In this document: in pieces, positions 11,000 through 38,830 of the stretch | Numbering within the stretch: position 1 is the stretch's first letter | Layout: the number at the start of each line of letters is the position of its first letter | Translations under genes and position numbers: made by a program | Source: Thermoleophilaceae bacterium | GTDB taxonomy: Bacteria > Actinomycetota > Thermoleophilia > Solirubrobacterales > Thermoleophilaceae | Reading direction: 5' to 3' | NCBI GenBank assembly: GCA_030448005.1 | Contig: JAUJNT010000005.1 | Location: forward strand, 23,710-87,709 | DNA: 64,000 bases | Notes under the pieces: model-generated | Told to the model about the DNA's origin: nothing | Seen by the model: only the letters and a program-made list of their open reading frames with translations | Databases searched by the model: none

Positions 11000-11071
11000 T
11001 GCGGGGTCGAATAATCGGCAATTCGCACGGCTCTGGACCGTGAAATCGGGGTTCAAGTCCCTGCCCCGCAG
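11000..11071 (+). tRNA. tRNA-Gln (anticodon CUG)
   Basis: Hand-folded cloverleaf. Acceptor UGCGGGG/CCCCGCA with U1:A72 and G73; D stem GAAU/AUUC. Anticodon stem CACGG/CCGUG with loop CU-CUG-GA. T arm CGGGG-UUCAAGU-CCCUG. No CCA encoded. Confidence 0.85.
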
Positions 11072-11138
11072 CTTCTCCTTGAAGTCACGTGGCCCCTCGC
11101 CTTCCACACTCCCCGCGATCCGCGGACACGTGACCCGG

Positions 11139-11807
11139 ATGACCATTAGCCTGCGCGGCATGCGCACCCGTCGCCTCCCACTGGTGTGTTTCGTCGTTGC
11201 GCTCGCCGCGGCAATGGCCGCCTGCGGCGAGGATCGGGAGGGAAGCGTCGAGCAGAGCGGAGACTCGACCGGCACCACCGGCACCACCGGCACCAGCGGC
11301 ACCACCGGTACCACCGGTACGGCCGGCACCACCGGCACGACGTCTACGAGTGCTACGCCCGCCCCGAGGGGAGCCGCGAGCTCGACCGTCAAGATCAAGG
11401 AGAGCGAGTACGAGATCGATCCCGCGAATCCGCGTATCCCCAAGCCCGGCGTGGTGAGCTTCAAGGTGCAGAACGCCGGCAAGGTGACCCATGCACTCGA
11501 GATCGAGGGGCCCGCAGGAGAGGTCGAGACCGAGGGCATCGCGCCGGGCAAGAGCGCCAGCCTCAAGGCCGACCTGTCGCGCCCTGGAACGTACAAGTGG
11601 TACTGCCCGATAGCGGATCACGAGGAGCGGGGCATGACCGGCAAGGTCACCGTCGCGGGCCGCGGGTCTGGTACCGGCACCGATGGCTCAGGAGCCGATG
11701 AGGACTCTCGTGCCGGCGGCCTCGGGTCGAGGAAGGGATCCGAGAAGAGCGGGGGCTCCGGCAGGCGGCCGGGCGCCGGCGGTGGCCACAGCGGCGGGGT
11801 CCACTGA
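11139..11807 (+). CDS. Cupredoxin (plastocyanin/azurin-like type-1 copper) lipoprotein with Gly/Thr linker
   Basis: Lipobox LAAAMAAC. Copper ligands fit H..C..H..M (THALEIE, WYCPIADHEERGM). The ORF-track start 11040 lies inside the tRNA, so ATG 11139 (or 11160) is used. Confidence 0.75.
   Translation: MTISLRGMRTRRLPLVCFVVALAAAMAACGEDREGSVEQSGDSTGTTGTTGTSGTTGTTGTAGTTGTTSTSATPAPRGAASSTVKIKESEYEIDPANPRIPKPGVVSFKVQNAGKVTHALEIEGPAGEVETEGIAPGKSASLKADLSRPGTYKWYCPIADHEERGMTGKVTVAGRGSGTGTDGSGADEDSRAGGLGSRKGSEKSGGSGRRPGAGGGHSGGVH
11271..11342 (+). repeat. Eight tandem 9-nt units (GGCACCACC-like) encoding (GTT)n linker
   Basis: Direct reading gives GGCACCACC x2, GGCACCAGC, GGCACCACC, GGTACCACC, GGTACGGCC, GGCACCACC, GGCACGACG. 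Confidence 0.9.
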
Positions 11808-21414: not shown

Positions 21415-21564
21415 ATGCCCCAGCCGGTTGGACTTGATACCCGCCACCAGCGGCTCGACCGCGAACGGCTGGAGGAAGACGCGCTGTTCAGGGCCTCTTG
21501 GTGGGCAGCATCGACCGCGTTCGCCGCGGTGACGTGGCTTTTTCTGATCACGCTGCTCTTCTAG
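21415..21564 (+). CDS. 49-aa tail-anchored small membrane peptide (paralog of 24973..25119)
   Basis: Below the ORF-track size cut-off. Sequence is MPQPVGLDTRHQRLDRERLEEDALFRASWWAASTAFAAVTWLFLITLLF. Similarity to the element copy begins at the SD (GGGAG) and start codon and ends at the stop codon. Confidence 0.5.
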   Translation: MPQPVGLDTRHQRLDRERLEEDALFRASWWAASTAFAAVTWLFLITLLF

Positions 21565-21671
21565 CCGCTCTCGCCCGACCAGGGCCACTAGAGAAGACGC
21601 CGGCAACGCGGTTTCTGACGAGCGCCGTTGGCGGAGTGTCCGGCTCGCCCGTCCGAACCTCCCCATCGCCC

Positions 21672-22150: not shown

Positions 22151-22378
22151 ATTGGCCTCCCCGTGAGTTGAGGGGCCGACCATAACGAGCGCAGCTATGG
22201 CGGTCAACCGTCCGAAGCGATGTCCGGACGACTTGGTCAGAAGCTGGTCCAATGCCGCGACTTCGCACCTAAAGGACGCTCGGGTTCTCCGCCCCCATCC
22301 CGGCCCTCCTCCGCGGGGGAAGGGTGCAGTCATCTTGTCCTCTTGCTCGGGGTGACGGCCGTGCTGGTGGAGGTGGCG

Positions 22379-22425
22379 CCAGTAGCTCCGCCTGGATTTG
22401 AACCAGGGACCTCACCATTATGAGT
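22379..22425 (-). repeat. attR: 47-nt copy of the 3' part of tRNA-Met (direct repeat of 32224..32270)
   Basis: CCAGTAGCTCCGCCTGGATTTGAACCAGGGACCTCACCATTATGAGT is identical at both sites. The flanks diverge immediately. Confidence 0.9.
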
Positions 22426-22493
22426 TGACCCTGGGAGTTGCGGACGTTTGCGGTTAGCCCGTTCAATCCCGCGCTGAGACTGGCGATACCGCA

Positions 22494-23645
22494 CTAGCTG
22501 GCCTTCTCCATCGGCTCGGCGTTTGCGGCTGTCCCCGGGTGTCCTGTTGCCCATCTGTTGCCCACCTTGACCGCTTCATCGAGGAAGGCCGCATCGCCCA
22601 CGCCGTCGTCCATCAGGTGGATGTACGTCCTGAGCGTGAAAGCCGGGTCAGCGTGCCCGAGCCAAGCCGATACCTGCTTCACGTCGCGGCCCGCCTCGAA
22701 CAGCAGGGAGGCGCACGTGTGCCTGAGCGTATGGAAGGTCGCCCACGGCACACCTGCCTGGTCGGTCGCCGGGTTGAACACTCGGCGGCGCAGGTTGGAG
22801 TCCGAAAGCGGCGTCCCTGCATCGGTCGTGAACACCCGGTCTGTCGGTTGCCTCCCGGCACTTAGCGTCCAGAGCCGGCGAGCCATCGCGGGGGAGAGGG
22901 GAACGTCTCGGCGGGAGCCGTCCGACTTGAGCTGCCCCACCTCCCCCCGACAGTCCTGGCGGCGGATCAGCAGCCTGGGGTGGTTGCCGAACTCCACGTC
23001 GCCCCACTCGAGCCCGATCGCCTCCGAGATCCTGAGCCCGCTGTGGGCGAGCAGCTCGAAGAACAGCCGCCAGTCCTCGGGTAGCGCCTCGAGCAGGCGT
23101 CCCAGCTCGGCGCGGGTGAGCGCCTTGGCGTCGGGCTCGTGGTCGGCTTCGTGGCGCTGCCCGCCGATCCTCACCTCCCTGGCCGGGTTGATTCTCAGCG
23201 CCCCGTCCTCCACTGCGGTGGCGAACATGGCCCGCAACGGGGCGAGCACCCGGCGAACAGTTCCGGGGCGAAGGCCCTTCGCCTCGAGCGTCGTCACGAA
23301 AGCCCGCACGTCCGGGGCCTCAACCTCAGACAGCTTGAGCCGCCCGAGGTGCGGATAGACCCACCGTTCTAGGTCTGCCCTGTACGAGCGCCTGGTGCGC
23401 TCTGAGAGCCCTCTGGCGGTGCGTCCGCGGTAGCCGTCGACCCATCGGCGGCAGTAGTCCTCGAGCGGCTCTCTGGAGGTTGGCCGGCGTTCGCCAGCGT
23501 CCCTCTGTCCCTTGGCCTCGCGGGCCTCATCGAGCGTGCGGTGAAACGACTTGTGCTGCTTCCCGCGGTGCCGCCAGACAACGACGTAACGACCACCCCG
23601 GCGATAGATGCCGGGGTGGCGGGTCTTTTCCATCTTGGCGGCCAT
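22494..23645 (-). CDS. int: Tyrosine-type site-specific integrase with N-terminal arm-binding (AP2-like) domain
   Basis: GIYRRGGRYVVVWRHRGKQHKSF N-domain. Catalytic-region motifs HSGLRISEA, HTLRHTCASLL, LGHADPAFTLRTYIHL. ATG 23645 after GGGAGGG; shares 1 nt with the upstream stop. Confidence 0.9.
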   Translation of the reverse strand: MAAKMEKTRHPGIYRRGGRYVVVWRHRGKQHKSFHRTLDEAREAKGQRDAGERRPTSREPLEDYCRRWVDGYRGRTARGLSERTRRSYRADLERWVYPHLGRLKLSEVEAPDVRAFVTTLEAKGLRPGTVRRVLAPLRAMFATAVEDGALRINPAREVRIGGQRHEADHEPDAKALTRAELGRLLEALPEDWRLFFELLAHSGLRISEAIGLEWGDVEFGNHPRLLIRRQDCRGEVGQLKSDGSRRDVPLSPAMARRLWTLSAGRQPTDRVFTTDAGTPLSDSNLRRRVFNPATDQAGVPWATFHTLRHTCASLLFEAGRDVKQVSAWLGHADPAFTLRTYIHLMDDGVGDAAFLDEAVKVGNRWATGHPGTAANAEPMEKAS

Positions 23646-23851
23646 CAGGCCTGCCCTCCCGCGGGCGCCACAACCGGGCGCCCGGCGGCCTGCGCGGCGT
23701 ACCGGTGACAGACGAGGAGATCCTCGCGATCCCCGGGAGGCAGGCCCGGGACCTTCAGGGCCTCGCCGAACGCATCCATCACGAGCCCCCACGCGCGTGA
23801 GGCGGCCGCGTCATCGACTGCGAGCGCCGGCACCACTGTGAGCGGCGCCAT
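23645..23851 (-). CDS. Hypothetical protein (68 aa), translationally coupled to int
   Basis: AAGGTGG SD 7 nt before ATG 23851. TGATG overlaps at both ends. No motif recognised. Confidence 0.5.
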   Translation of the reverse strand: MAPLTVVPALAVDDAAASRAWGLVMDAFGEALKVPGLPPGDREDLLVCHRYAAQAAGRPVVAPAGGQA

Positions 23852-24216
23852 CAGCTCGCCACCTTCTGTCCCTGCATGTGCCCATGGAACGCGAGCATGG
23901 ATCGCCCCTCGCGCTCGTCGCGTTCCGGGTCGGCGAGAAACTTTCGATCGGGCTTCGCCCGCTGCGAGTGGACGTCGGACATCAGCTCGTTACCCGCCTC
24001 CCAGGCGTGCTCGAGGAACGCAGCCAGCAGGTCGTCGGGCATTGAAACCTCGCCCGACCACGATCCGACTATCGGGTTGATCGGCAACGACTCTTCGATG
24101 CCCAGCAGCACGCGGAGCTGGCCGGCGTCCTCCGCTTCGCACGCCATCTCGAAGTGGCGTTGGTACAGGTAGCGCAGCCCGTCGACGTGCTCGGGGTGAA
24201 TGGTGATCGTCGCCAT
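23851..24216 (-). CDS. Hypothetical protein (121 aa)
   Basis: ATG 24216 lies 7 nt after GGGAGGTGG. TGATG junctions with both neighbours. No motif recognised. Confidence 0.55.
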   Translation of the reverse strand: MATITIHPEHVDGLRYLYQRHFEMACEAEDAGQLRVLLGIEESLPINPIVGSWSGEVSMPDDLLAAFLEHAWEAGNELMSDVHSQRAKPDRKFLADPERDEREGRSMLAFHGHMQGQKVAS

Positions 24217-24596
24217 CAGGCCACCTCCCTTTCCATCCACGCTTCCTCAAGGAGCCCCTTACCTGCGATCACCGCGTCGATCTTCTCCACCGTCTTGTTC
24301 CCGACGCCTTCCATCGCGGCCACCTCGTGGCGCGGCCAGCGCCGAACAAGCTCCTCGACCGTCTGAATGTCCTGCCCGGTGCAATGCTGGGAGCTAAGGC
24401 GGTCAAGGGTTTCGCCCTTGATGCCAACGTCGTGTAGGGGCGTCCCTCCCTTCTCGCGGCGGATCCCCGACTGCACGCGGGCTTCCAGCTCCCACAGGAG
24501 TGCCTTGTCCTTCCCCACCAAGTACATGAGGACGGCTTCGGTTATGTAGCGAACGTCCCTCAGCTCGCGGCGTAGGTGCTCAACTTCACTCGGCAT
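24216..24596 (-). CDS. Hypothetical DNA-binding protein with C-terminal helix-hairpin-helix resembling the RNA polymerase alpha CTD
   Basis: IQTVEELVRRWPRHEVAAMEGVGNKTVEKIDAVIAGKGL resembles the alpha-CTD HhH. SD GAAGGGAG. First gene of the four-gene int operon. Confidence 0.5.
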   Translation of the reverse strand: MPSEVEHLRRELRDVRYITEAVLMYLVGKDKALLWELEARVQSGIRREKGGTPLHDVGIKGETLDRLSSQHCTGQDIQTVEELVRRWPRHEVAAMEGVGNKTVEKIDAVIAGKGLLEEAWMEREVA

Positions 24597-24603
24597 TGCT
24601 GCT

Positions 24604-24626
24604 CCCTTCGGTTGGGCTCCGAAGGG
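24604..24626 (-). promoter_or_regulatory. 8-bp perfect hairpin whose 3' arm contains the SD of gene 24216..24596
   Basis: In the mRNA sense: CCCUUCGG-AGCCCAA-CCGAAGGG followed by AGCAGC-AUG. GAAGGGAG is the only SD-like sequence present. Confidence 0.4.
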
Positions 24627-24775
24627 ACCGGCTGGCGACGGGCTGCGCGGATAGTCTGCGCGGCGTCATCGGAGCTAGGACCTCCGGTGGCCACGGGGCG
24701 GGCCGTTCACGCGGCGCCGCCCCACTTGTATGGACGGGGCCCACCCTACGCCTCCTCGGCCCCGGCTGCAAGAGC

Positions 24776-24793
24776 GGTGTCGCATGCGACAGT
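24776..24793. promoter_or_regulatory. 18-nt motif GGTGTCGCATGCGACAGT containing a perfect 14-bp palindrome (copy 1 of 2)
   Basis: Identical 18-mer at 30935..30952. TGTCGCA/TGCGACA is a perfect dyad. Sits ~180 nt upstream of the int-operon start. Confidence 0.6.
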
Positions 24794-24972
24794 GCGGCCG
24801 AGCCTCATGCGGCCATGAACCCCGTTTTGAGTCAGGGGCGTCCGGGCATATTTGCTTCTGAGTTCGACTTCGGCGGGTCCGCTCCACGGTGGGGGCACGG
24901 AACTCAGGCCCGTCCCCTTGACGGACTTCGGCCGTGCAGGACGGTCCGGAGGACAGGAACGGAGACCTAACG

Positions 24973-25119
24973 GTGCCCCACCCCACTGCACTGGGTGCCC
25001 TCCAGCAACGACCCGCCCGGGAGCCGAAGGCGAGGCCGCTCTTCGTGGTCTCCTCGTGGGCGGCAATGATCGCGTTCTCGGCGGCGACGTGGCTCTTGCT
25101 CATCACGCTGCTCTTGTAG
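24973..25119 (+). CDS. 48-aa tail-anchored small membrane peptide, opposite strand to the element's operons
   Basis: GTG 24973 lies 8 nt after GGAG. VPHPTALGALQQRPAREPKARPLFVVSSWAAMIAFSAATWLLLITLLL aligns end to end with the 21415..21564 product. Confidence 0.5.
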   Translation: MPHPTALGALQQRPAREPKARPLFVVSSWAAMIAFSAATWLLLITLLL

Positions 25120-25158
25120 CCTGCCGCGCCGTCAGCGGTCATCGTCACTCCTCGTCTG

Positions 25159-25359
25159 TCAGCGCCGAGCGCCACCGCTCGAGCTCGAGCGCTGCCGCGG
25201 GGAACGCCCCGCGTCCGAGTGCTGCTCCTCGTCATCTATGGACACGGCGCGGCCGGCAACCCTTTGGGATTGCGCTCGCTGGGTCCGCTGCTTCGGCGCT
25301 TCCGCCTCGTCAGTCAAGACGACGTAGGCGCGGCCGGGACATCTGGGCATTCCTAACAC
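25159..25359 (-). CDS. Hypothetical protein (66 aa)
   Basis: GTG 25359 lies 6 nt after AAGGAG at the end of the upstream gene. Polar, low-complexity tail. Weak coding look. Confidence 0.35.
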   Translation of the reverse strand: MLGMPRCPGRAYVVLTDEAEAPKQRTQRAQSQRVAGRAVSIDDEEQHSDAGRSPRQRSSSSGGARR

Positions 25360-25362
25360 TTG

Positions 25363-26079
25363 CTACTCCTTCCGATCGAAGCTAAGTCCGTACTCGATTT
25401 GGGATAGCTGCCAGGTGGGGAGCCGCATACCGGGGGGAAGCTGGGGCTTGAGGCTCACCGCCGGGTCGAAGACAATCCGTTCGTATGAGAGGACGATGCA
25501 GTGGTCGAGGAAGGGGTTGTCGGCGTTCCCCATCTCCACGCCGACAGCGGCCATAGCGGCCTCATCGACGCGCCCCCCGATAACGCCCACCCATCGGTCG
25601 CGATCGACTGGTACGGCGTCGTGGATCACGAGCCGCAAGCCGCGGCCACTCAGCCACTGCTCGATTCTCGCCCAGGAGTCGCGGGAGATCTCCTCCGGAT
25701 CCTCGCCAGCACGTACGCGCTGATCTAGATGCAGATCGGGCACCTGGTCCACCGGGATCTGTGTTGCCGTGGCGAGGGCCACCCGGAGACAACCATCCGG
25801 GCGGGTCGGATGCATGCAGTAGCCGACCCCGTCGTCCCCCAGCTGCACGACCGGGTGTTGGGGCTGCGACGCCCAAATCTCGCGAGCGTGCGCGCCCGGT
25901 GTGTGGGCAAGTGCGCCGGGGGCAGTGAGCGGGTGGCTCGGTTTCGCACCTGCCGCACTTTGGCTGCAACGCTCGGCCTGGCGGCGCTCAGCCTTGCGCC
26001 GCTCACGGCGCTCAGCCTTACGGCGCTCAGCCTCGCGGCGGTCGGCCTTACTGCCCTTCTTGCGGGAGTGGCGGCTCAC
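25363..26079 (-). CDS. Hypothetical protein: basic AERRK-repeat N-terminus plus C-terminal domain with Cys/His pair (possible papain-like peptidase)
   Basis: GTG 26079 forms a GTGA overlap with the HNH stop. [24 protein letters not shown] repeat. Candidate catalytic residues in [12 protein letters not shown] and FLDHCIVL. Confidence 0.55.
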
Positions 26080-26357
26080 CACTCCCGACTCCAAACTCGC
26101 GGGGGGCACACGTCGCTGCCGGGGGATGTCCGGGGCGAGCGCCGGCCGGAAGTTGCCCTGTTGCAGCCGGAGTGCTCTGGCCCCGTATATCGGGAGCGGT
26201 CGCGGTCATCGTGGCCGAGGTCCCACCGCTCGCCGGGGAGGATCGGCAGACCGCACCGTGCGCACCGGGCCTTTCCCGCAGCGACTAGCGGCTCAAGCCG
26301 CTTCCGTAGCTGCTGGTGGCGGCTGCCGTAGCCCCTCTTTGCCGTATCGCCGGCCAT
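26076..26357 (-). CDS. HNH endonuclease (actinophage-type)
   Basis: [14 protein letters not shown]...[20 protein letters not shown]...GPEHSGCNR is the classic HNH/zinc-finger layout. Confidence 0.8.
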
Positions 26358-26473
26358 CTAGCGGACCTTTCCGCGGCGGGGAGAGAGATCCCTGACGGGG
26401 CGGGGGTCAACGCGGAGGTGCCCTTCGAGGCCCCCGGACCCCCCCTCCCGCAAACTGCGACTCTGCTCGCGGC

Positions 26474-26770
26474 TCATGCTTCCGTCGCCCCGTGGATGGC
26501 GTCGGCCAGCTCGCTCACCACTCGCTCGTACAGGTCGCCGGTCGTGGGGTCGCCGTCCAGGGCTCGCTCGAGCACGGCGGGAAGCTCGGCACGGTTAAGC
26601 CCGTGGGCTATTGCGGCTTCGACGGCCGGACGCAACAGATCCTTGACCTTTGCGAAAAGTGCGAAGCGCTCCTCTAGCGTCCACTGCTCGAGGGGGTGGC
26701 GTTGCTTCACCTGCACCGGGGAGAACCGCACGCGGGCCGGCGCGGGGAAGCCACCTCCTCTGCGGTTCAT
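26474..26770 (-). CDS. Hypothetical protein (98 aa)
   Basis: ATG 26770 in an ATGA overlap with the upstream stop. Helical, no motif. Confidence 0.5.
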   Translation of the reverse strand: MNRRGGGFPAPARVRFSPVQVKQRHPLEQWTLEERFALFAKVKDLLRPAVEAAIAHGLNRAELPAVLERALDGDPTTGDLYERVVSELADAIHGATEA

Positions 26771-27159
26771 AGTCGCCACGTCGGGCACCTCCCCGATCCG
26801 CGGTCGCCGAGGTCCCATGGCTTGCGGGCGGGCGCCATACGACGTGTGCCGGTGTCGGGTCGGCTTCGGGCCCGGGCGACCATCAGCCTCATCTCGGACG
26901 CGGTGAGCTTGTCTTGTGGGTCGGCGTTCGTGAAGAGCTCGGGCCGCTGACGGACCGCGGGGTGATCGGGTGCAAAGCGGTCGCGCCTCGGGTGCAGACG
27001 CTCGCGCCGGCCATCGACCGTGACCGTGACCGGGGCTTTCGGGGTGACCATTCCCTCACCCTGCAGCGTGCGCCGCCTCTTGCGGCTGGGAGCGGGCGTG
27101 GCCGGGGGTTGAGGGTTTGTCGGTAGGTGAGCCGCGGCTATCTCGACACGGCCCCTCAT
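26767..27159 (-). CDS. Hypothetical protein (130 aa)
   Basis: ATG 27159 in an ATGA overlap with the stop of the frame-shifted upstream gene. Basic/proline-rich N-terminus. Confidence 0.45.
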   Translation of the reverse strand: MRGRVEIAAAHLPTNPQPPATPAPSRKRRRTLQGEGMVTPKAPVTVTVDGRRERLHPRRDRFAPDHPAVRQRPELFTNADPQDKLTASEMRLMVARARSRPDTGTRRMAPARKPWDLGDRGSGRCPTWRL

Positions 27160-27561
27160 CGCTTCACCGTCGCCCTCGGATCCACGAATGCGTCGGGTGC
27201 GAGCCGCACCAGCTCGGCGTCCCGCGGCACGACCGTACCCACGGGAAGCTGCGTAAGGCGCTTGGCCCCGGCCTCCCACACTCGGAGCGGCTTACGGGTC
27301 ACGAGGGCATCGAGGGTTCTCAGTGCCTCGTAGACGACCGCGTCGACTTCGGTTGCAACCTCGTCCTGGCCGGCGGGTCAGCTGCGCCGGCCTGATCGGC
27401 GTGCCGTCCGGGACCCAGTGCTCGAAGTGCTCGCGCACGAGCGGGTCATCGCCGCGACGGCGCTCGCCAGCGCGGAGCGTGGTTTGGAGGTCGAAGCTAA
27501 TCGAGTCGCGGCACTGGTACACGGCGTTCGGGTCGGGCTTGCTCTTGGTCTTGGTTGGCAT
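27156..27561 (-). pseudogene. Hypothetical gene split by a +1 frame change near 27365-27377
   Basis: ATG 27561 lies 6 nt after GGAGAA. The first ~65 codons look coding, then GC3 collapses. The +1 frame continues as PAGQDEVATEVDAVVYEALRTLDALVTRKPLRVWEAG...ATVKR, with high GC3, and ends in ATGA coupling at 27156. Confidence 0.5.
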
Positions 27562-27657
27562 CTTCACTTCTCCTTTGGGTTCAGGCTTGCGGTCGAAGCC
27601 TCGACCACGGCTTGAGGGTTTGTCGGTATCTGAGCGTCACGGCCTCGGCTCGAGTTC

Positions 27658-27927
27658 TCACGGTCGCTTCGCCCCTCCGCTCGCCACGTACTGGCGCAAC
27701 TCGGCAGGGTCGAAAATCAAGCGGGAGCCGTCGCGGTGGACGGGGATCCGGCCTGCGGACACGAGGCTGTAGATCCTGGAGGTGGGGCATGAGAGAAACT
27801 CGGCAGCGCCGGCCACGTCGAGGTAGCCGGCGGGCTCGGCCTGGTGGTCGGCCAAGCGCTCGAGCACACGGTTTGCGACGGCGTCCACGAGCGCGTCGGG
27901 GAGGTCGATCCAAAGTCCCTGGCTCAC
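27658..27927 (-). CDS. HTH_17 / excisionase-family DNA-binding protein
   Basis: LDVAGAAEFLSCPTSRIYSLVSAGRIPVHRDGSRLIFDPAELRQYV. GTGA overlap with the primase/helicase stop. Confidence 0.75.
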   Translation of the reverse strand: MSQGLWIDLPDALVDAVANRVLERLADHQAEPAGYLDVAGAAEFLSCPTSRIYSLVSAGRIPVHRDGSRLIFDPAELRQYVASGGAKRP

Positions 27928-29885
27928 GCGACCACCTCGGCGGCAAGAGGGCGTCGGCAGGTCTGGCAGAAGTCCGGGCCTTCGGCTCGAGGGGAGCGGG
28001 CAGGCACTCGGCAGGTGCAGTGGTCAAGGTCGCCACCAGCCCCTATCCCTTTGGCGGTGGCGGCCTTGGCGGCCTTGGCGGTGTTGTTGGCGGAGTTAAA
28101 AGGCTCTACAGAGGGAAGACCGACAAGACCGCCAACCGCAGAGCTAGAGGAGGGGGAGGCGGGCTTGAGTTCCCACTGCCGACCGCTCGAGGTCTTAGAT
28201 GCCTTGGCTCCGACCCGCGACTTGGCACGCTCCACTGTCCGCCACGAGAGGCCGGCGTCAGCCGCCGCGGTCTTCAACCTGGGCGTCGGGATCGGCCCGT
28301 CTGCAAGCTCGGCCCGTAGGAAGTCGGCTGCCTCATCTCGGGCGGTGCGCTCCTCGGAGTTCGCCGGCTGCTCGAGTAGGTCGCGGGCGGTCTGCTGGGT
28401 TTCATCGAGCAGGATCACCCGGCTGGTCGCGAGGGTCTGGCCGTCGTCGCTCAGGACTCGGCGCGGCTCGATGCGGGCGCGGAGGGATGGGGCGAGCGGA
28501 CCGACGTTGCACTTGGCGTGGGCGAGCACCCTGTAGGGGCCGCTCTCGCCCTCTGGGTCCTCTGGGTCGCGGGCGAACGCGAGCACGCTGCGGGCCGATG
28601 CGGTGAACCCAACCGACCCGCTGACCCGTGAGAGAACATCGGTTGTGTCTCCCTTGTTGAGGTGCATGACGCCGAGCACCGCGATGTTGTGGTCACTCGC
28701 CAGCCGTGCGAGTGGCGCGAGAACGCGCCGCACGTCCTGGTCGCGGTGGGCGTTCACGTCGCCGCCGAGGTAGCCCACCAGTGGGTCGAGCACTAGCCAT
28801 CGGGCATCAGCTTTGACAACGGCGTCGGCGAGCTTGGGGAGGTCTTCGGGCAGGGTGAGCATTCCGGGGACCCGTTCGCCCTCGAGCCGGTCCACAACCT
28901 CGAGGATGGACACACGCTCAAGGTCGGCCCCCGCGGCCATTAGGCGCGGCAGGAGGGTGGTGTGCGGCGAGTCCTCCCCGCTGGCGATAACGACGCGCGC
29001 GTGTGTGCCCTCGAGGTCGCCGGCAAGCTCGCCGCGGGTCGCCTGGGCGAGCAGCTCAATCGTCAGGCTCGACTTGCCGAGCCCCTCCTTGCCGGCGAGG
29101 ATCGTGACCAATCCTTGTGGCACCCGATCCTTGAACACCCAGCTTGGTGAACACGGCTCGATCGAGGACGCCGCCCGCAGCACAACCTCTCGCCCGCCAT
29201 CCGCCTGCGAGGCAACCGGGGCGGTTTCAGGTGCGGCACCGTTCACTGAGAGGGCAGCCTTGGCTCGGTGCAGCGCTTCGAGCGGCTTCGCCTCGGCGAT
29301 CAGCGCCTCGAGCGCTGCAGCGGGCGCATCGGCAGCGCGCGCCGGGTCGCTTGCTGCGACAACGAGTACGTCGGCAAGATCCTGGCCGTCCGGTATCGGC
29401 AGGATCAGCGGCCGGATGCCGGCGGCCTCGAGCGCCTCGGAGAACTTGGCGGCGGCCTTGCGTCCAGGCTCGTCGCCATCCATCGCCAGCAGCGCTGCCA
29501 TCGTGCCGGTGTCGGCCAGCGCGGCGGCCAGCCTCGCGGGCGGGTAGCCCGTGCCGGGTACGGCGGCTATCCCATAGGCGCGCAGTGCGGCTATCTCCGC
29601 GGTCGCCGGCAGGTGTGTCGCTGCGGCGACCGCGTCGGGCTCCCCTTCGCAGACGAGCACCGTCGGGTCATTCTGCGGCTCGACAACCCACCAGAGCGCG
29701 AGCGGCGAGCCGGCGGGTTGAAGCGTTCGGCTCCCCTCGAGCGGCCGGCGGCGGCCCCCGGGGTAGGTCAGCGTGCCCGGCGGCTGTTCGCTCACGCCGA
29801 GGGCCGCCGCTATCTCCGGGTCGATCGCGTGGCTGGCGAAGTAGTCGAGCGCCGCGGTAGAGAACTTGGTCTGCGTCGCGCTCAC
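27924..29885 (-). CDS. Replication protein: Toprim domain + RepA/AAA_25-like ATPase + C-terminal Cys4-type zinc ribbon
   Basis: VLVCEGEPDAVAAA and LLAMDGDEPGRKAA (Toprim). Walker A LAGKEGLGKSSL, Walker B-like WLVLDPL. Tail HCTC...CQTC. GTG 29885 chosen; ATG 30002 would add an Arg-rich junk-like leader. Confidence 0.8.
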   Translation of the reverse strand: MSATQTKFSTAALDYFASHAIDPEIAAALGVSEQPPGTLTYPGGRRRPLEGSRTLQPAGSPLALWWVVEPQNDPTVLVCEGEPDAVAAATHLPATAEIAALRAYGIAAVPGTGYPPARLAAALADTGTMAALLAMDGDEPGRKAAAKFSEALEAAGIRPLILPIPDGQDLADVLVVAASDPARAADAPAAALEALIAEAKPLEALHRAKAALSVNGAAPETAPVASQADGGREVVLRAASSIEPCSPSWVFKDRVPQGLVTILAGKEGLGKSSLTIELLAQATRGELAGDLEGTHARVVIASGEDSPHTTLLPRLMAAGADLERVSILEVVDRLEGERVPGMLTLPEDLPKLADAVVKADARWLVLDPLVGYLGGDVNAHRDQDVRRVLAPLARLASDHNIAVLGVMHLNKGDTTDVLSRVSGSVGFTASARSVLAFARDPEDPEGESGPYRVLAHAKCNVGPLAPSLRARIEPRRVLSDDGQTLATSRVILLDETQQTARDLLEQPANSEERTARDEAADFLRAELADGPIPTPRLKTAAADAGLSWRTVERAKSRVGAKASKTSSGRQWELKPASPSSSSAVGGLVGLPSVEPFNSANNTAKAAKAATAKGIGAGGDLDHCTCRVPARSPRAEGPDFCQTCRRPLAAEVVA

Positions 29886-30023
29886 GTCGTGGCCCCCTTG
29901 GCGCGCTCGCGCAGGAAGATGGCCAGCTCGCGCAGGGCCGCACGGCGGCCGGCGAGAGGCTTGGCAGCGAGCACGTCGAGCTGGTCGGCAAGCTCGAGCC
30001 ACGGGTCGCGTCGTGGTGGCGGG

Positions 30024-30290
30024 CTAGGATTCGTCACGTCGCCCCGTCCCGGGCGAAGTTGTGACGAGGCCCGGAGTGGTGTCCGGGTCTCTGTCGTCTA
30101 TGGAGCGATCTAGGAAGGCCTCCACGTCCGCCGGCCGAAACCGTGCGAGCCGGCCGATGTGAAGGACAGGGAGCTCGCCGCGGGTGACGAGTCGTGCCAC
30201 CGTGCGAGGGGACACCCCGAGCAGCTCGGCGACTTGTTCGCTTGTCAGGACTAGCCGATCCCGACCGTAGACTGCCTGGGCGTGCCTCAT
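30024..30290 (-). CDS. HTH_17 / excisionase- or AlpA-like DNA-binding protein
   Basis: LTSEQVAELLGVSPRTVARLVTRGELPVLHIGRLARFRPADVEAFL. First gene of the leftward replication operon. Confidence 0.75.
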   Translation of the reverse strand: MRHAQAVYGRDRLVLTSEQVAELLGVSPRTVARLVTRGELPVLHIGRLARFRPADVEAFLDRSIDDRDPDTTPGLVTTSPGTGRRDES

Positions 30291-30521
30291 GCAGCCAGTG
30301 TGGTCAGACAGGCCCCGCCCGACAACGAGCGGTTTGACCCTAAAACGCTCACCCACCTAGTCGCCGCTGCGGCCGAGCAGGGCCGCCCGGCGTGGAGTTT
30401 GCCGGCCCCGGTGCGGCGACTTCCGGACGGGTTGTTGGTTCCCCAACTGGATCGGGTTGTGGCTCGCCTGGGCAATGGCCCGCTCGTGTTGACTTCGCCC
30501 GACAAGGTGACTCCGGCGCCT

Positions 30522-30923
30522 ATGAGGCAGAAGCCAAAAGACGAAACCGTTCTCGCGCTCGGCACCAACTGGGAGCCAGCGATCAAGCTCGCGTGGGACG
30601 CCGCCGTCAAAAAGTCACATGTACGAACCGAGCTCTGCGGCCTCTACGCAGCGGCGGCCTATGACCTGGCCGGCGTCACCATCGAAGAGCTAACAGAGGA
30701 TCTCTCTTACGCCAGTCGCACGATCCAGGACGTGGTAAGCCGTGGTCGCACGCTCTGGGCCGGATTAGCCGCTTGGCCGTGGTGGTACTTCGCCCGCTTC
30801 GGTGGCCAAGACCCTCCCGGACGGCCGTTTCGCGGCTGGCGCACCGACGAGCGCATGCACCTCACCTTCGCGGCTTGGGAATCGGGGATTGTGCCGAACT
30901 ACGCAGCGACCCGCCGCCCGTGA
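30522..30923 (+). CDS. Hypothetical HTH-containing regulator, divergent from the leftward operon (start uncertain; ORF open from 30282)
   Basis: GVTIEELTEDLSYASRTIQDVVSRGRTLW looks like an HTH. One of only two plus-strand genes in the element. A start at 30282 would overlap the divergent gene. Confidence 0.4.
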   Translation: MRQKPKDETVLALGTNWEPAIKLAWDAAVKKSHVRTELCGLYAAAAYDLAGVTIEELTEDLSYASRTIQDVVSRGRTLWAGLAAWPWWYFARFGGQDPPGRPFRGWRTDERMHLTFAAWESGIVPNYAATRRP

Positions 30924-30934
30924 GCGGCGCGCGG

Positions 30935-30952
30935 GGTGTCGCATGCGACAGT
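30935..30952. promoter_or_regulatory. 18-nt motif GGTGTCGCATGCGACAGT (copy 2 of 2)
   Basis: Identical to 24776..24793. Lies 12 nt after the stop of the plus-strand regulator. Confidence 0.6.
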
Positions 30953-30999
30953 TCAGTCATACCGTCGCAGCGCGCGGCCCCGCTGACCGGGCTTGAGGC

Positions 31000-31191
31000 T
31001 TATGCCGCCGCCCGCCATGCGGCCGCCGTGTCCTCGAGCGCCTCGAGCCACTCCCGCTTTTCGTCCGGCGGGAGCGCCGCGAGGGCCGCGGTCCATGCGG
31101 CAGCGAAGTCCACGCCAGCTTGCCGTTGCTGCTCAAGCTGGTGGCGCACCTTCACAGTCGAACGCACGGCCGGAATGTTGCCCGGGTTCAC
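31000..31191 (-). CDS. Hypothetical small helical protein (possible third gene after the TA pair)
   Basis: In-frame GTG 31191 within ORF 31000..31299. Tail VDFAAAWTAALAALPPDEKREWLEALEDTAAAWRAAA. Weak. Confidence 0.25.
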   Translation of the reverse strand: MNPGNIPAVRSTVKVRHQLEQQRQAGVDFAAAWTAALAALPPDEKREWLEALEDTAAAWRAAA

Positions 31192-31208
31192 GGACAGGTT
31201 CGACCTGC

Positions 31209-31508
31209 CTAGTCGGCCTCGAGGGGTTTCAACTGAACCCACCCCAACTCGCACCTTCGCTCCGGTTCGTGGATTCGGAAGAAGACTCGTATCTCCCACC
31301 CGTCGAGACGATCGATCGTGCGGACGATTCGCTGCCGCTCATCCACCGATGGATACGAGACGCCCAGCGGGTTCCTGGCGAGCGCTTTTTCGATAGCGGC
31401 CATATGAGCCTCAGGCCGCGTGAGCGCCTCCTGCGCCTTCGCCCACGTCTTCTTGAACTCATCGCGCCGATCGAGCGTCCACAGCCGGCGCTCGTCCGGC
31501 ACCCACAC
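31209..31508 (-). CDS. Putative toxin partner of the Panacea-domain protein; RelE/ParE-like pattern (inferred)
   Basis: 99 aa, GTG start 6 nt after the PanA-like stop. Helical N-half, then GWEIRVFFRIHEPERRCELGWVQ beta-strand pattern as in ParE/RelE toxins. Confidence 0.5.
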   Translation of the reverse strand: MWVPDERRLWTLDRRDEFKKTWAKAQEALTRPEAHMAAIEKALARNPLGVSYPSVDERQRIVRTIDRLDGWEIRVFFRIHEPERRCELGWVQLKPLEAD

Positions 31509-31514
31509 GGGGGC

Positions 31515-32057
31515 TTACCAGCCGAGCTGCTGCCCGACCTCGCGCCCCATATCGATTGCGTCCCGCGGTGGCGGCTGCATCGAGATCAACGCTGTCTCGT
31601 ATGGGATCTCTTCCCCGAGTTCGGTCAGGTTCCAGCCGGCCGAAACCTGATGCGATATCTCGCTGATCGTGGTTGCATCGAAGCGTCGATACAGCTCGAG
31701 CACCTCGTCAACAATCTCGAGTTCCTCCGGAGTGAAGACGCCGAGGTCAGGAGGGCGCTGCGCCACCGTCACCTTCTGGGTGTAGATCATCCTCTCGCGA
31801 CGCTCGACGTTCACCGCGCCCTCATGCTGAAGGGCATCCTGTACAGGCAGGAGCCGCTTGGGGGCAGGGCCCTTCTCGAGGTTCTGATAGGCCGCACCCG
31901 TGATCGGCTCACCCAGAACCGCGTAGGCGTGGAAGTCGCAGAAGAACAGCAGCTTGTTTAGCTTGGTCGCACCGAAGGTCGGATCGCTGGCTGAGCGATC
32001 CGCGAGCAGAATCAACAGCTCCCGAAACTTGCCTTCGTCGTACCGAATCCCCTCCAT
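31515..32057 (-). CDS. Panacea / DUF4065 (SocA/GepA-like) domain protein, putative antitoxin
   Basis: ATG 32057 directly after GGGAGGAGCT. ATKLNKLLFFCDFHAYAVLGEPITGAAYQNLEKGPAP matches the KLQKLLYF...G.P....Y....GPV signature. The rest of ORF 31515..33446 is read-through across a tRNA. Confidence 0.8.
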   Translation of the reverse strand: MEGIRYDEGKFRELLILLADRSASDPTFGATKLNKLLFFCDFHAYAVLGEPITGAAYQNLEKGPAPKRLLPVQDALQHEGAVNVERRERMIYTQKVTVAQRPPDLGVFTPEELEIVDEVLELYRRFDATTISEISHQVSAGWNLTELGEEIPYETALISMQPPPRDAIDMGREVGQQLGW

Positions 32058-32193
32058 AGCTCCTCCCAGGGTACGCCGTCCGCAAAGAAGACCCTCCAAC
32101 CAGGAGCGTAGTCGTCGCCTCGGCCAGCGCCCTGACAAGCGCCCTTGAGTTCGGGCAGTTGCCCAATCGGTTGCCCTCAGGCGCAGCGGCGGA

Positions 32194-32225
32194 GGGGCTA
32201 AAGACCACGATTTCGCTCTAGCCCC
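32194..32225 (-). terminator. Hairpin GGGGCTA-N18-TAGCCCC immediately 3' of tRNA-Met, contributed by the element arm
   Basis: 7-bp perfect stem read directly, overlapping the att core by 2 nt. The large loop makes its function uncertain. Confidence 0.3.
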
Positions 32226-32227
32226 AG

Positions 32228-32300
32228 TAGCTCCGCCTGGATTTGAACCAGGGACCTCACCATTATGAGTGGTGCGCTCTAACCGCTGAGCTACGGAGCC
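32228..32300 (-). tRNA. tRNA-Met (anticodon CAU, elongator-type)
   Basis: GGCUCCG UA GCUC AGCGGUUA GAGC G CACCA CUCAUAA UGGUG AGGUC CCUGG UUCAAAU CCAGG CGGAGCU A. The anticodon stem lacks the initiator GGG/CCC. No CCA encoded. Confidence 0.9.
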
Positions 32301-32579
32301 GCAGGTCCCGAGGATATCTGGAGCTGGAGCGAGATCCGGCGCGCTTATGGCCGGTGGGGCCGCTCCCTTTCCGGGGGCCCCCGCCAGGTCGCACTCGGTT
32401 CTGGGTCGGCACGCCGGAGATGCCGCCACCGCGGCTCGCGACTTTGCAGATCCTGCGGTTTCATCGCGAGCCGCAGGGCGGTAGGTCCCCCGGGACCACA
32501 TTGCACGGGCATGCCCGTTATGTGACACGATGCGCGGTGGGCCGGGTGAGCCGGCGTTCCCCCGAGCGAAGGAATCGAG

Positions 32580-32777
32580 ATGGAGTCTCGCGAAGAGCGC
32601 CCGCCGCACGATCCGAACGACCCGCGCGGCGGCGGTGGAACCGGTGGAGGTCCGGGTCCCGACGCACAAAGCAAGCATAAGGAGTGGGCAGAGTCTAAGA
32701 AGGCCGAACGGGGAGGCGAGCCCGCGGAGCCTGAGCCCGAGTCGGGCGCATCCGCGGGGGACTCCGCCGCTAGCTGA
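32580..32777 (+). CDS. Hypothetical Gly/Glu/Pro-rich disordered small protein
   Basis: ATG 32580 lies 7 nt after AAGGA. 65 aa, hydrophilic. Converges on the open-ended paralog b. Confidence 0.3.
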   Translation: MESREERPPHDPNDPRGGGGTGGGPGPDAQSKHKEWAESKKAERGGEPAEPEPESGASAGDSAAS

Positions 32778-32861
32778 GCCCGGGCGCTCGCCCGATCGGC
32801 CTGAGCCGGGCCCCGCTACCCGTCGCCCTCCGTCTCCTCGGGTCCGCCGCGGATCCGGATC

Positions 32862-33113
32862 GGAGAGCACGGTGAACGCCAGAATGTCCCCGCAGGCGAT
32901 TTGGTGTCCCTCCGCAAGCACCACCGTGCCTAGTGGGCCCACGACGGTGGTGGGCTGGTCGAGGTGGCCGACCACGTCATCGGATCCGCTGAGCTCGAAG
33001 CGGATCGGGAGGTGGCCCAGCCCTTCCCGGCGGACCTGGGACAGGGCCGTCAGGTACCAGGAGGCGCCGGCGTCCTCGGGGCGCTGGATGCGCTCGTCCT
33101 TGCGCAAGGTCAC
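32862..33113 (-). pseudogene. Paralog b of a small conserved unknown protein; no in-frame stop (3' end undefined)
   Basis: From GTG 33113: VTLRKDERIQRPEDAGASWYLTALSQVRREGLGHLPIRFELSGSDDVVGHLDQPTTVVGPLGTVVLAEGHQIACGDILAFTVLS aligns with 33239..33499. The frame then stays open for ~1.3 kb through the tRNA. Confidence 0.35.
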
Positions 33114-33238
33114 CTGCCGAGCCCCGCGGCCACTTCGAACGCGCCGGTCGCCCGGAAGCGCTCGTGTCGGCGCGCCACGATGTGTACGTTCTCCCGGAAC
33201 ATGCTCCGTACCGCCGTGGCGGGTGTACCGGCCTCGAC

Positions 33239-33499
33239 CTAGTCCTCGACGATCACGGTGAACGCCTGGACGTCGTCGCAGGAGATCTTCTCGCCGTCCG
33301 CGAGTGCGATGGTGCCGCGCGTGCCCAACACGGTCGAGACGCGGTCGAGGTGGCCGAAGACGTCCCCTTGCCCGGCCGTCTCGATATGGATGGCGATGTC
33401 GCCCATCTGCTCGCGCCGGAGCTTGGTGAGAGCCGGCACGCACCACGCGGGACCGCCACCGGGCGGGCGCTCCACGCGCTCTCCCTCCTCGAAGTTCAC
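33239..33499 (-). CDS. Paralog a of a small conserved unknown protein (86 aa)
   Basis: From GTG 33499: VNFEEGERVERPPGGGPAWCVPALTKLRREQMGDIAIHIETAGQGDVFGHLDRVSTVLGTRGTIALADGEKISCDDVQAFTVIVED. No SD; family not recognised. Confidence 0.4.
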   Translation of the reverse strand: MNFEEGERVERPPGGGPAWCVPALTKLRREQMGDIAIHIETAGQGDVFGHLDRVSTVLGTRGTIALADGEKISCDDVQAFTVIVED

Positions 33500-38527: not shown

Positions 38528-38830
38528 GCTCTTGCCCTACGGCCTCCCGTGGCAGGTCCGCTTGCCCGGGCCCTGGCGAGGGTGACCCACGGCTCTCTAA
38601 AGCCCGCCGCGAACGCTCGGTTGCCTGCTAGCGTTCGCTCCAAGCTCTAGCTTGTACGCCAGCCGGCCCATCACGTTGAGCCAACACCACCGGGATGGGA
38701 GTCCGACTCGAGGCGTGCCAGGCGTTCGCCGCCAGGTCACGCTTCGGAGGACACCCACGCTTGCTACACGCAGGCCCAACTCCCGAGTCGGCAGCGGCAA
38801 GCTGGAGCTGATACTCCGTAAGGTGGTCGC

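Follow-up and report, generated by a model that had tools for sequence, protein, structure and literature searches.

The window examined here is a stretch of 64,000 nucleotides (nt) from contig JAUJNT010000005.1 of a Thermoleophilaceae bacterium, and it contains a 9.9-kb integrative element that carries, at its tRNA-proximal end, the gene panA, which encodes a Panacea-domain protein, and directly behind it a small candidate toxin gene, here called panT (Table 1). A 50-nt direct repeat, identical at 49 of 50 positions between its two copies, reproduces the 3' part of a tRNA-Met gene, and the segment bounded by the copies was therefore interpreted as a 9.9-kb insertion. Repeats that duplicate the 3' end of a tRNA gene and a tyrosine integrase encoded within the segment that they bound are the features by which a tRNA-integrated element is recognized, and both were found. 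Given the copy of the repeat that overlaps tRNA-Met and the bounds of the element, the panA-panT pair is located at the tRNA-proximal edge, as had been proposed in an earlier note made from the letters of this DNA; the two genes are the first inside the element at that end and lie on the same strand as tRNA-Met.

Table 1. Features of the panA-panT locus and of the element that carries it (positions are those of the window)
Feature	Position	Strand	Evidence
panA, 180-aa standalone Panacea (DUF4065) protein, predicted antitoxin	31515..32057	-	Pfam PF13274 E 5.5e-17; phrog_1281 E 3e-13
Shine-Dalgarno-like GGGAGGAG upstream of panA ATG	32060..32067	-	sequence read
Spacer between panA stop and panT GTG, 6 nt	31509..31514	-	sequence read
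panT candidate, 99-aa, rare unannotated family, predicted RelE/ParE fold	31209..31508	-	conservation, AF2, Foldseek
tRNA-Met (CAU), integration target	32227..32300	-	ARAGORN; Rfam RF00005, 71.5 bits
att repeat, tRNA-proximal element end	32221..32270		direct repeat family D4
att repeat, distal element end (duplicated tRNA-Met 3' segment)	22376..22425		direct repeat family D4
Tyrosine integrase, element context outside the toxin-antitoxin module	22494..23792	-	Pfam PF00589 E 4e-24; phrog_1 E 1.6e-71
Toprim + AAA_25 primase/helicase-like replication protein	27924..30002	-	PF13481 E 2.7e-29; Toprim_2 E 2.8e-7; phrog_10729 E 7.5e-37
HTH_17 (excisionase/regulator-type) protein of the element	30024..30356	-	Pfam PF12728 E 1.5e-14

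Translation of panA starts at an ATG (32057-32055), 4 nt after the end of the GGAGG core of the Shine-Dalgarno-like sequence (32067-32060), and stops at a TAA (31517-31515); the 180-amino-acid (aa) product includes the peptide ATKLNKLLFFCDFHAYAVLGEPITGAAYQNLEKGPAP. The Shine-Dalgarno sequence and the Panacea signature that the earlier note had read in this frame were both borne out, the Pfam model PF13274 (SocA_Panacea) scoring 63.1 bits against a gathering cutoff of 25.7 over residues 33-142 and profile positions 1-112 of 113. An N-terminal accessory domain is lacking in PanA, but 38 residues at its C terminus form an extension that is conserved within its clade (IPYET.LIS..PPP.A.E.GRE.A...GW; clade alignment A3). 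The start agrees with those of orthologs on two metagenomic contigs (L001 and L002), and the ratio of nonsynonymous to synonymous substitution rates (dN/dS) between the window gene and its two closest relatives is 0.09-0.18. A 643-aa frame on the minus strand (31515..33446) from a mechanical list of open reading frames (ORFs) was rejected as a high-GC artefact that crosses tRNA-Met, the true start being the ATG at 32057. On the NCBIfam SocA equivalog model NF047745, PanA scored 17.2 bits against a cutoff of 190 and is accordingly no SocA equivalog.

Reading of the sequence likewise upheld the GTG that had been placed six nucleotides past the panA stop. This codon, at 31508, opens the 99-aa panT frame, which ends at a TAG (31211-31209) and encodes GWEIRVFFRIHEPERRCELGWVQ at residues 70-92; the start is backed by an ATG at the equivalent position in locus L001 (MWVPDERRL...). 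Since the 6-nt spacer holds no separate strong Shine-Dalgarno sequence, translational coupling to panA is likely, and the two genes are probably bicistronic and translationally coupled. GC content at the first, second and third codon positions of panT is 0.67, 0.44 and 0.78, a coding-frame pattern that is inverted in the long antisense ORF. Compared with its counterparts in the two closest relatives, panT has dN/dS values of 0.10-0.42, and this small gene is under purifying selection.

The panT family is rare. A word-indexed search of 5.8 billion proteins recovered 3 relatives, HMMER, run exhaustively over 1.84 billion cluster representatives (50% identity), recovered 18 at E<1e-3, and a profile search for the family recovered 21; about 30 homologs are found among billions of proteins, at 23-72% identity to the window protein. 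In all 10 of the distinct loci open to inspection (the window, L001, L002, L003 [L003-5], L006, L007, L008, L009, L010 and L011), a PF13274 gene is followed at a distance of 3-33 nt by a panT homolog, and the family members of L014 and L018 are likewise preceded by a PF13274 gene. The upstream PF13274 genes encode 178-282 aa, and the pairing persists where panT identity is down to 23-30%. Moreover, the two proteins diverge together, PanA identities of 87, 69 and 48% going with 70, 51 and 27% for the putative toxin, and the flanks of the pair differ from locus to locus: tyrosine integrases with HTH_17 genes, a serine recombinase, a DDE transposase or metabolic genes. Thus, the conservation beside Panacea genes that the earlier note had asked to be checked by gene neighbourhood was seen at every inspectable locus, panT occurring obligately just behind a Panacea gene. 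The loci conform to the FlaGs criteria for a toxin-antitoxin (TA) locus used by Kurata 2022 (PMC8832971), including reciprocity, in that the toxin relatives themselves adjoin PanA.

These data bear directly on the idea that the Panacea gene alone is real, the 99-aa frame being open by chance because the DNA is GC rich. High-GC DNA does yield many long spurious and overlapping ORFs, the 643-aa frame above among them, and the 99-aa ORF is matched by no database family. Against this, homologs down to 23% identity retain length, position and motif, dN/dS stays below 0.45, the AlphaFold2 (AF2) fold described below is confident, and independent gene callers predicted panT on other contigs. Conservation and selection together refute the chance frame, which we consider to have practically no chance of being correct.

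The organization of the module was also compared beyond the immediate family. The primase of the window element and the 683-aa protein of the similarly organized element at L006 have no significant similarity, and the PanAT pair is therefore cargo common to unrelated element backbones. When representative genomes of GTDB were scanned with the PanA alignment, 80 loci were obtained, the best PanA match being 48% identical; they come mostly from metagenome-assembled genomes (MAGs) of Acidimicrobiia and of other Actinomycetota, Planctomycetota and Chloroflexota. In nearly all of them, an ORF of about 90-113 aa abuts or overlaps the PanA stop. This partner belongs to the extended panT family in 16 of the 80 loci, and in 49, mostly from Acidimicrobiia MAGs, it belongs to a 105-aa family with no detectable sequence relation to the panT family of the window. 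A single PanA clade is paired with two or more sequence-unrelated partner families of about 100 aa, which we read as clear partner swapping. Among viral contigs of IMG/VR, an extended-family partner stands beside 5 of 9 close PanA relatives.

The 105-aa family (loci L020-L082, for example, L039 3546-3860) is itself unannotated and overlaps the PanA gene by 4 or 1 nt (spacings of -4 or -1 nt). Its consensus reads ...PSEWDFWSGPLAAAL..FRDF...VDPVFG.VVFVGVL...VEIADF..DPDYW, and it may represent another uncharacterized PanT family. At locus L008 (109-995), gene calling split the Panacea gene into two pieces of 113 and 75 aa, behind which an intact family member of 116 aa follows; the antitoxin gene may be disrupted there, or the assembly may contain a frameshift.

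A possible third small ORF had been noted behind the pair at 31000-31191. The frame exists: orf3 (31191..31000, minus strand) encodes 63 aa starting VNPGNIPAVRSTVKVRHQLEQQRQAGVDFAAAW..., and gene calling on an identical metagenomic contig (L105) also predicted it. No family match was found for orf3, and in the other loci no homolog of it lies beside the pair; the 88-aa gene downstream of the pair in L003-L005 is likewise locus specific. The hypothesis of a third gene was therefore dropped, and the module is taken to consist of two genes.

The fold of the 99-aa protein was predicted with AF2. With 21 sequences, the best model reached a predicted local distance difference test score (pLDDT) of 88.8 and a predicted template modelling (TM) score of 0.78, and all five models exceeded a pLDDT of 82; a 3-sequence alignment gave one acceptable model (pLDDT 74.6) of equal topology. 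The predicted elements are beta1 (residues 11-14), alpha1 (16-26), alpha2 (32-45), beta2 (60-66), beta3 (71-80) and beta4 (85-95), and this beta-alpha-alpha-beta3 order is that of RelE/ParE, a superfamily of small domains in which an antiparallel sheet of three or four strands packs on a helical hairpin. Foldseek searches of the PDB agreed: the top 22 matches are all toxins of the RelE/ParE superfamily (RelE, HigB, YafQ, YoeB and ParE) at a probability of 1.00, among them Mycobacterium tuberculosis RelE2 (3g5o; E 2e-4) and RelE1 (9g12_A; TM scores of 0.72/0.82, root mean square deviation [rmsd] 2.0). Further matches include PfiT, HigB2, YafQ, YoeB and the RelE proteins of Thermus, Pyrococcus and Escherichia coli, with ParE2 and another ParE ranked below the RelE structures. 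A fold search of BFVD was uninformative. On the strength of the models, membership of the 99-aa protein in the RelE/ParE superfamily is well supported at the level of fold, in line with the resemblance that had been suggested from its letters. Of the outcomes that the earlier note had named as telling against the pair and that can be sought in silico (no DUF4065 match, no conservation beside Panacea genes, an unstructured partner), none was observed.

Sequence searches of the same protein gave a different picture, since no match was found in Pfam, NCBIfam or PDB sequences (phmmer) to an E value of 10, nor in PADLOC or PHROGs. With hhalign, the window family was linked to a second group of PanA-linked proteins, about 90 aa long and from MAGs of Planctomycetota and Chloroflexota (95.6%, E 1e-8). 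Against a small alignment of nine RelE/ParE sequences, this sister group (A6) gave a weak co-linear match of 31.7%, which was not counted as evidence of membership. Across 31 family members, R60 is invariant (31/31) and P47 and W90 are nearly so, with R31, R45, R78/K, E87, S51 and R94 common; the conserved arginines (R60; R78/K, R45, R31 and R94) lie on or near the predicted sheet. In RelE, the catalytic residues K52, K54, R61, R81 and Y87 are placed on beta2/beta3 and after beta4, and C-terminal catalytic residues are R81/Y87 in RelE, H83/Y84 in YoeB and H87 in YafQ. Most panT family members and their tail-less cores are acidic, with isoelectric points (pI) of 4-7; the core of the window protein is basic (pI 9.4).

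PanA proteins and their PanT partners were defined by Kurata 2022, with 1,268 predicted pairs that fall into 88 toxin clusters, and PanA proteins bind and neutralize diverse toxins (PMC8832971, PMC10440598). By analogy with validated PanAT pairs and with the behaviour of the RelE/ParE superfamily, which are the basis for assigning function in this in silico analysis, it is likely that the window pair is a type II PanA-PanT module in which PanA neutralizes a toxin of RelE/ParE fold, carried as cargo on the tRNA-Met element. In such a module, the free 99-aa protein would arrest growth and PanA would neutralize it through direct binding, by way of either the Panacea core or the clade-specific C-terminal extension, the latter comparable to wrapping of the Phd-C/RelB type. 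Loss or inactivation of a labile or sensor antitoxin, upon loss of the element or phage infection, would then release the toxin, and either the element would be stabilized or the infection would be aborted. Ernits 2023 (PMC10440598) found that PanA neutralizes via the Panacea core or via appended elements such as Phd-C, and these modes lead us to hypothesize that the conserved C-terminal extension could be the neutralizing element.

A number of results weigh against a PanA-neutralized RelE/ParE-fold toxin. By sequence, panT does not group with RelE/ParE families in the Pfam and NCBIfam models or among PDB relatives. A Pfam scan of 68 extended-family members returned just 2 matches, both to PF05016 and both below threshold; hhalign detected no signal between the window family and the nine RelE/ParE sequences; and family profiles of 19, 31 and 68 sequences retrieved only designed helical repeats from PDB sequences, which we dismissed as noise on the 'L.R.P' motif of alpha2. 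No His, Tyr or Lys is conserved among the 31 family members, just Arg residues and W90. The chain stops 4 residues after beta4 or runs on as an acidic tail, for example, EDEEQDENRDEDD, and consequently the RelE-type C-terminal catalytic segment is absent; the acidic pI of most members is moreover atypical of ribosome-binding RNases. Promoter, terminator and inverted-repeat scans of 30900-32350 revealed no convincing promoter or operator. Finally, of 25 PanTs assayed in E. coli, 8 were not toxic, and the Clostridium cadaveris PanT of cluster T1 was toxic and was not neutralized by its PanA (PMC8832971).

Because the C-terminal segment is missing and the composition is acidic, the proposal is committed to a PanA-neutralized toxin, with RelE-like inhibition of translation as the leading sub-hypothesis only. 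Interference with translation through mRNA cleavage is the weakest step of the scheme, a tentative guess that is somewhat less than an even bet; it is suggested by the best structural matches, which are RelE, and by the short helices. The same module could instead hold a ParE-like toxin that poisons gyrase and causes DNA damage and replication arrest rather than mRNA cleavage. In ParE toxins, the N-terminal helical hairpin is long, and their toxicity depends, in the studied examples, on a C-terminal segment. Two relatives, one from the window family and one from the sister group, match PF05016 (ParE_toxin) co-linearly at E 0.087 and 0.047, with 13.8-14.7 bits against the Pfam cutoff of 23, and they form a sequence trail from the panT family to ParE_toxin that is transitive and weak and that counts for the RelE/ParE-fold reading as a whole as well. 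PfiT (9w3a) and ParE2 (5cw7) are among the Foldseek matches at TM scores of 0.55-0.63, and the acidic-to-neutral pI and the lack of RelE-type catalytic residues would be more in keeping with a toxin that binds protein than with an RNase bound to the ribosome. On the other side, the best structural matches are to RelE (TM score up to 0.82) and not to ParE, alpha1 and alpha2 span just 11 and 14 residues, and the family has no segment beyond beta4, so that in the predicted models the panT features do not match the long-hairpin ParE architecture either. ParE is among the PanT domains detected with CDD in Kurata 2022. Taken together, we consider gyrase poisoning quite unlikely as the action of this protein.

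We put at a similarly low level the chance that the RelE/ParE-fold protein does not itself arrest growth and is either a toxin that has degenerated or a partner that serves PanA as an adaptor or regulator. The pair would then work differently, for example, as a sensor/adaptor pair in analogy to SocA as a ClpXP adaptor. The absence of the canonical catalytic residues and of the C-terminal segment and the acidic composition and tails would fit such a protein, as would the sizeable share of predicted PanTs that were not toxic in E. coli (Kurata 2022) and the sensory role that Ernits 2023 proposed for Panacea. Yet panT is under purifying selection with R60 held throughout the family, the layout on mobile elements is strictly two genes, antitoxin first and tightly spaced, and the low score on the SocA equivalog model is accompanied by no SocB-like partner. 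To our knowledge, moreover, all characterized free-standing RelE/ParE-fold proteins are toxins, the exceptions being domains embedded in larger proteins, such as those of Cami1 and TrmO, both of which were met in the Foldseek search.

A further possibility, which we hold to be unlikely and for which the missing C-terminal catalytic segment and the acidic composition leave some room, is that the 99-aa family and its sister group of about 90 aa form a PanA-specific branch of the RelE/ParE fold that has lost both the RelE catalytic C terminus and the ParE determinants and acts by a mechanism new to this fold. Such a mechanism might involve, for instance, a new cellular target or a non-enzymatic effector under the control of Panacea as a sensor, and the acidic tail might serve in autoinhibition or target mimicry.

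The remainder of the element, apart from the genes in Table 1, includes four ORFs without a family match (24675-25235, 25363-26109, 26767-27279 and 30282-30923). Genes for a capsid, for conjugation or for a relaxase were not recognized in the 9.9-kb element (22376-32270), which could be satellite-like or mobilizable. The window contains just two copies of TGTCGCATGCGACA, a perfect palindrome of 14 bp, and both are within the element, at 24778-24791 and 30937-30950. One of them separates the convergent ends of orf3 and a 213-aa ORF, and the palindrome may serve the element as an operator or origin. A segment of about 150 nt inside the element (24974-25121) is repeated with 73% identity just outside the distal att copy (21416-21566). 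Both copies could encode a short peptide starting M..KSHV.A.NA..AAH.E, neither matched an Rfam family, and the repeat may be the remnant of an earlier related insertion. Elsewhere in the window, a 6S RNA was found at 38641-38812 on the plus strand (Rfam RF00013, 54.2 bits against a gathering score of 46.4), and 8 tandem copies of a 9-nt ACCGGCACC-like unit occupy 11259-11347, about 190 nt downstream of tRNA-Gln (11000-11072).

Comparison with known systems places the pair as follows. With SocAB, the type VI TA system of Caulobacter, it shares the Panacea domain, SocA being the founding Panacea protein, but the partner is unrelated to SocB and there is no sign of protease-adaptor action. With ParDE, PfiAT and PaaA2-ParE2, it shares the superfamily fold (TM scores of 0.62 for 9w3a and 0.59 for 5cw7) and the PF05016 matches of the two relatives; it differs in that those matches are sub-threshold and none was obtained for the window protein, in its shorter N-terminal helices and in having no ParD-type antitoxin. 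The closest likeness in structure is to M. tuberculosis RelBE1 (9g12) and RelBE2 (3g5o), with which the window pair has in common the predicted beta-alpha-alpha-beta-beta-beta fold (TM scores of 0.64-0.82, rmsd 2.0-3.2) and an antitoxin-first bicistronic operon. In contrast to those systems, the antitoxin is a Panacea protein instead of RelB, the sequences are 15-21% identical and give no match at the level of hidden Markov models (HMMs), and the family lacks the C-terminal helix or tail bearing the catalytic Arg/Tyr and is mostly acidic rather than basic.

Among PanAT clusters, several described by Kurata 2022 (PMC8832971) resemble HigB-2, YoeB, ParE or RelE by HHpred (T14 at 99.7% and T28 at 89%), and the largest, T1, has a standalone PanA, the antitoxin gene first and small overlaps, and is labelled 'mRNase' in Table S1. 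The T1 representatives from E. coli and phage Emek were not toxic, a T28 representative could not be cloned, and no RelE/ParE-like PanT is known to have been validated as a neutralized pair; in Ernits 2023 (PMC10440598), RelE/ParE is one of the folds listed as recurring in the TA network. Since RelE/ParE-like PanT clusters such as T14, T28 and T1 had thus been catalogued in silico, the suggestion of a new PanT type was overstated, and what stands of it is an unannotated, rare sequence family. Identity with T1 was set aside, as the family HMMs did not detect orf161 of Salmonella phage Emek (L107 15152-15637), the sole T1 member compared; at 161 aa, this protein differs from the window family, which is about 100 aa long, mostly acidic and without the C-terminal catalytic motif.

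With T14, T28 and T1, the window module shares a standalone ('noNTD') PanA in first position with a small partner within a few nucleotides, a two-gene layout that recurs across taxa with variable flanks, a location on mobile elements and prophages, and a RelE/ParE-like predicted fold of the partner; it differs in its partner, for which no sequence model of Pfam, of CDD type or of the PDB gave a match. The panT family is uncatalogued and missed by current Pfam and NCBIfam models, its RelE/ParE placement coming from structure prediction alone. 'Hyperpromiscuous' swapping of partners has its textbook example in Panacea antitoxins, and to it this locus adds a concrete toxin family; a PanA clade with two partner families offers a natural series for studying how an antitoxin scaffold is re-targeted. 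In other respects, the pair would be ordinary cargo of a small integrative element, serving addiction or defence. In a comparison that covers one T1 member of a catalogue in which 41 clusters are unannotated, the panT family is both new and rare in sequence but of a kind already known, and it is not a new PanT type. If the proposed reading is true, a working pair from this clade would be the first experimentally neutralized RelE/ParE-like PanT.

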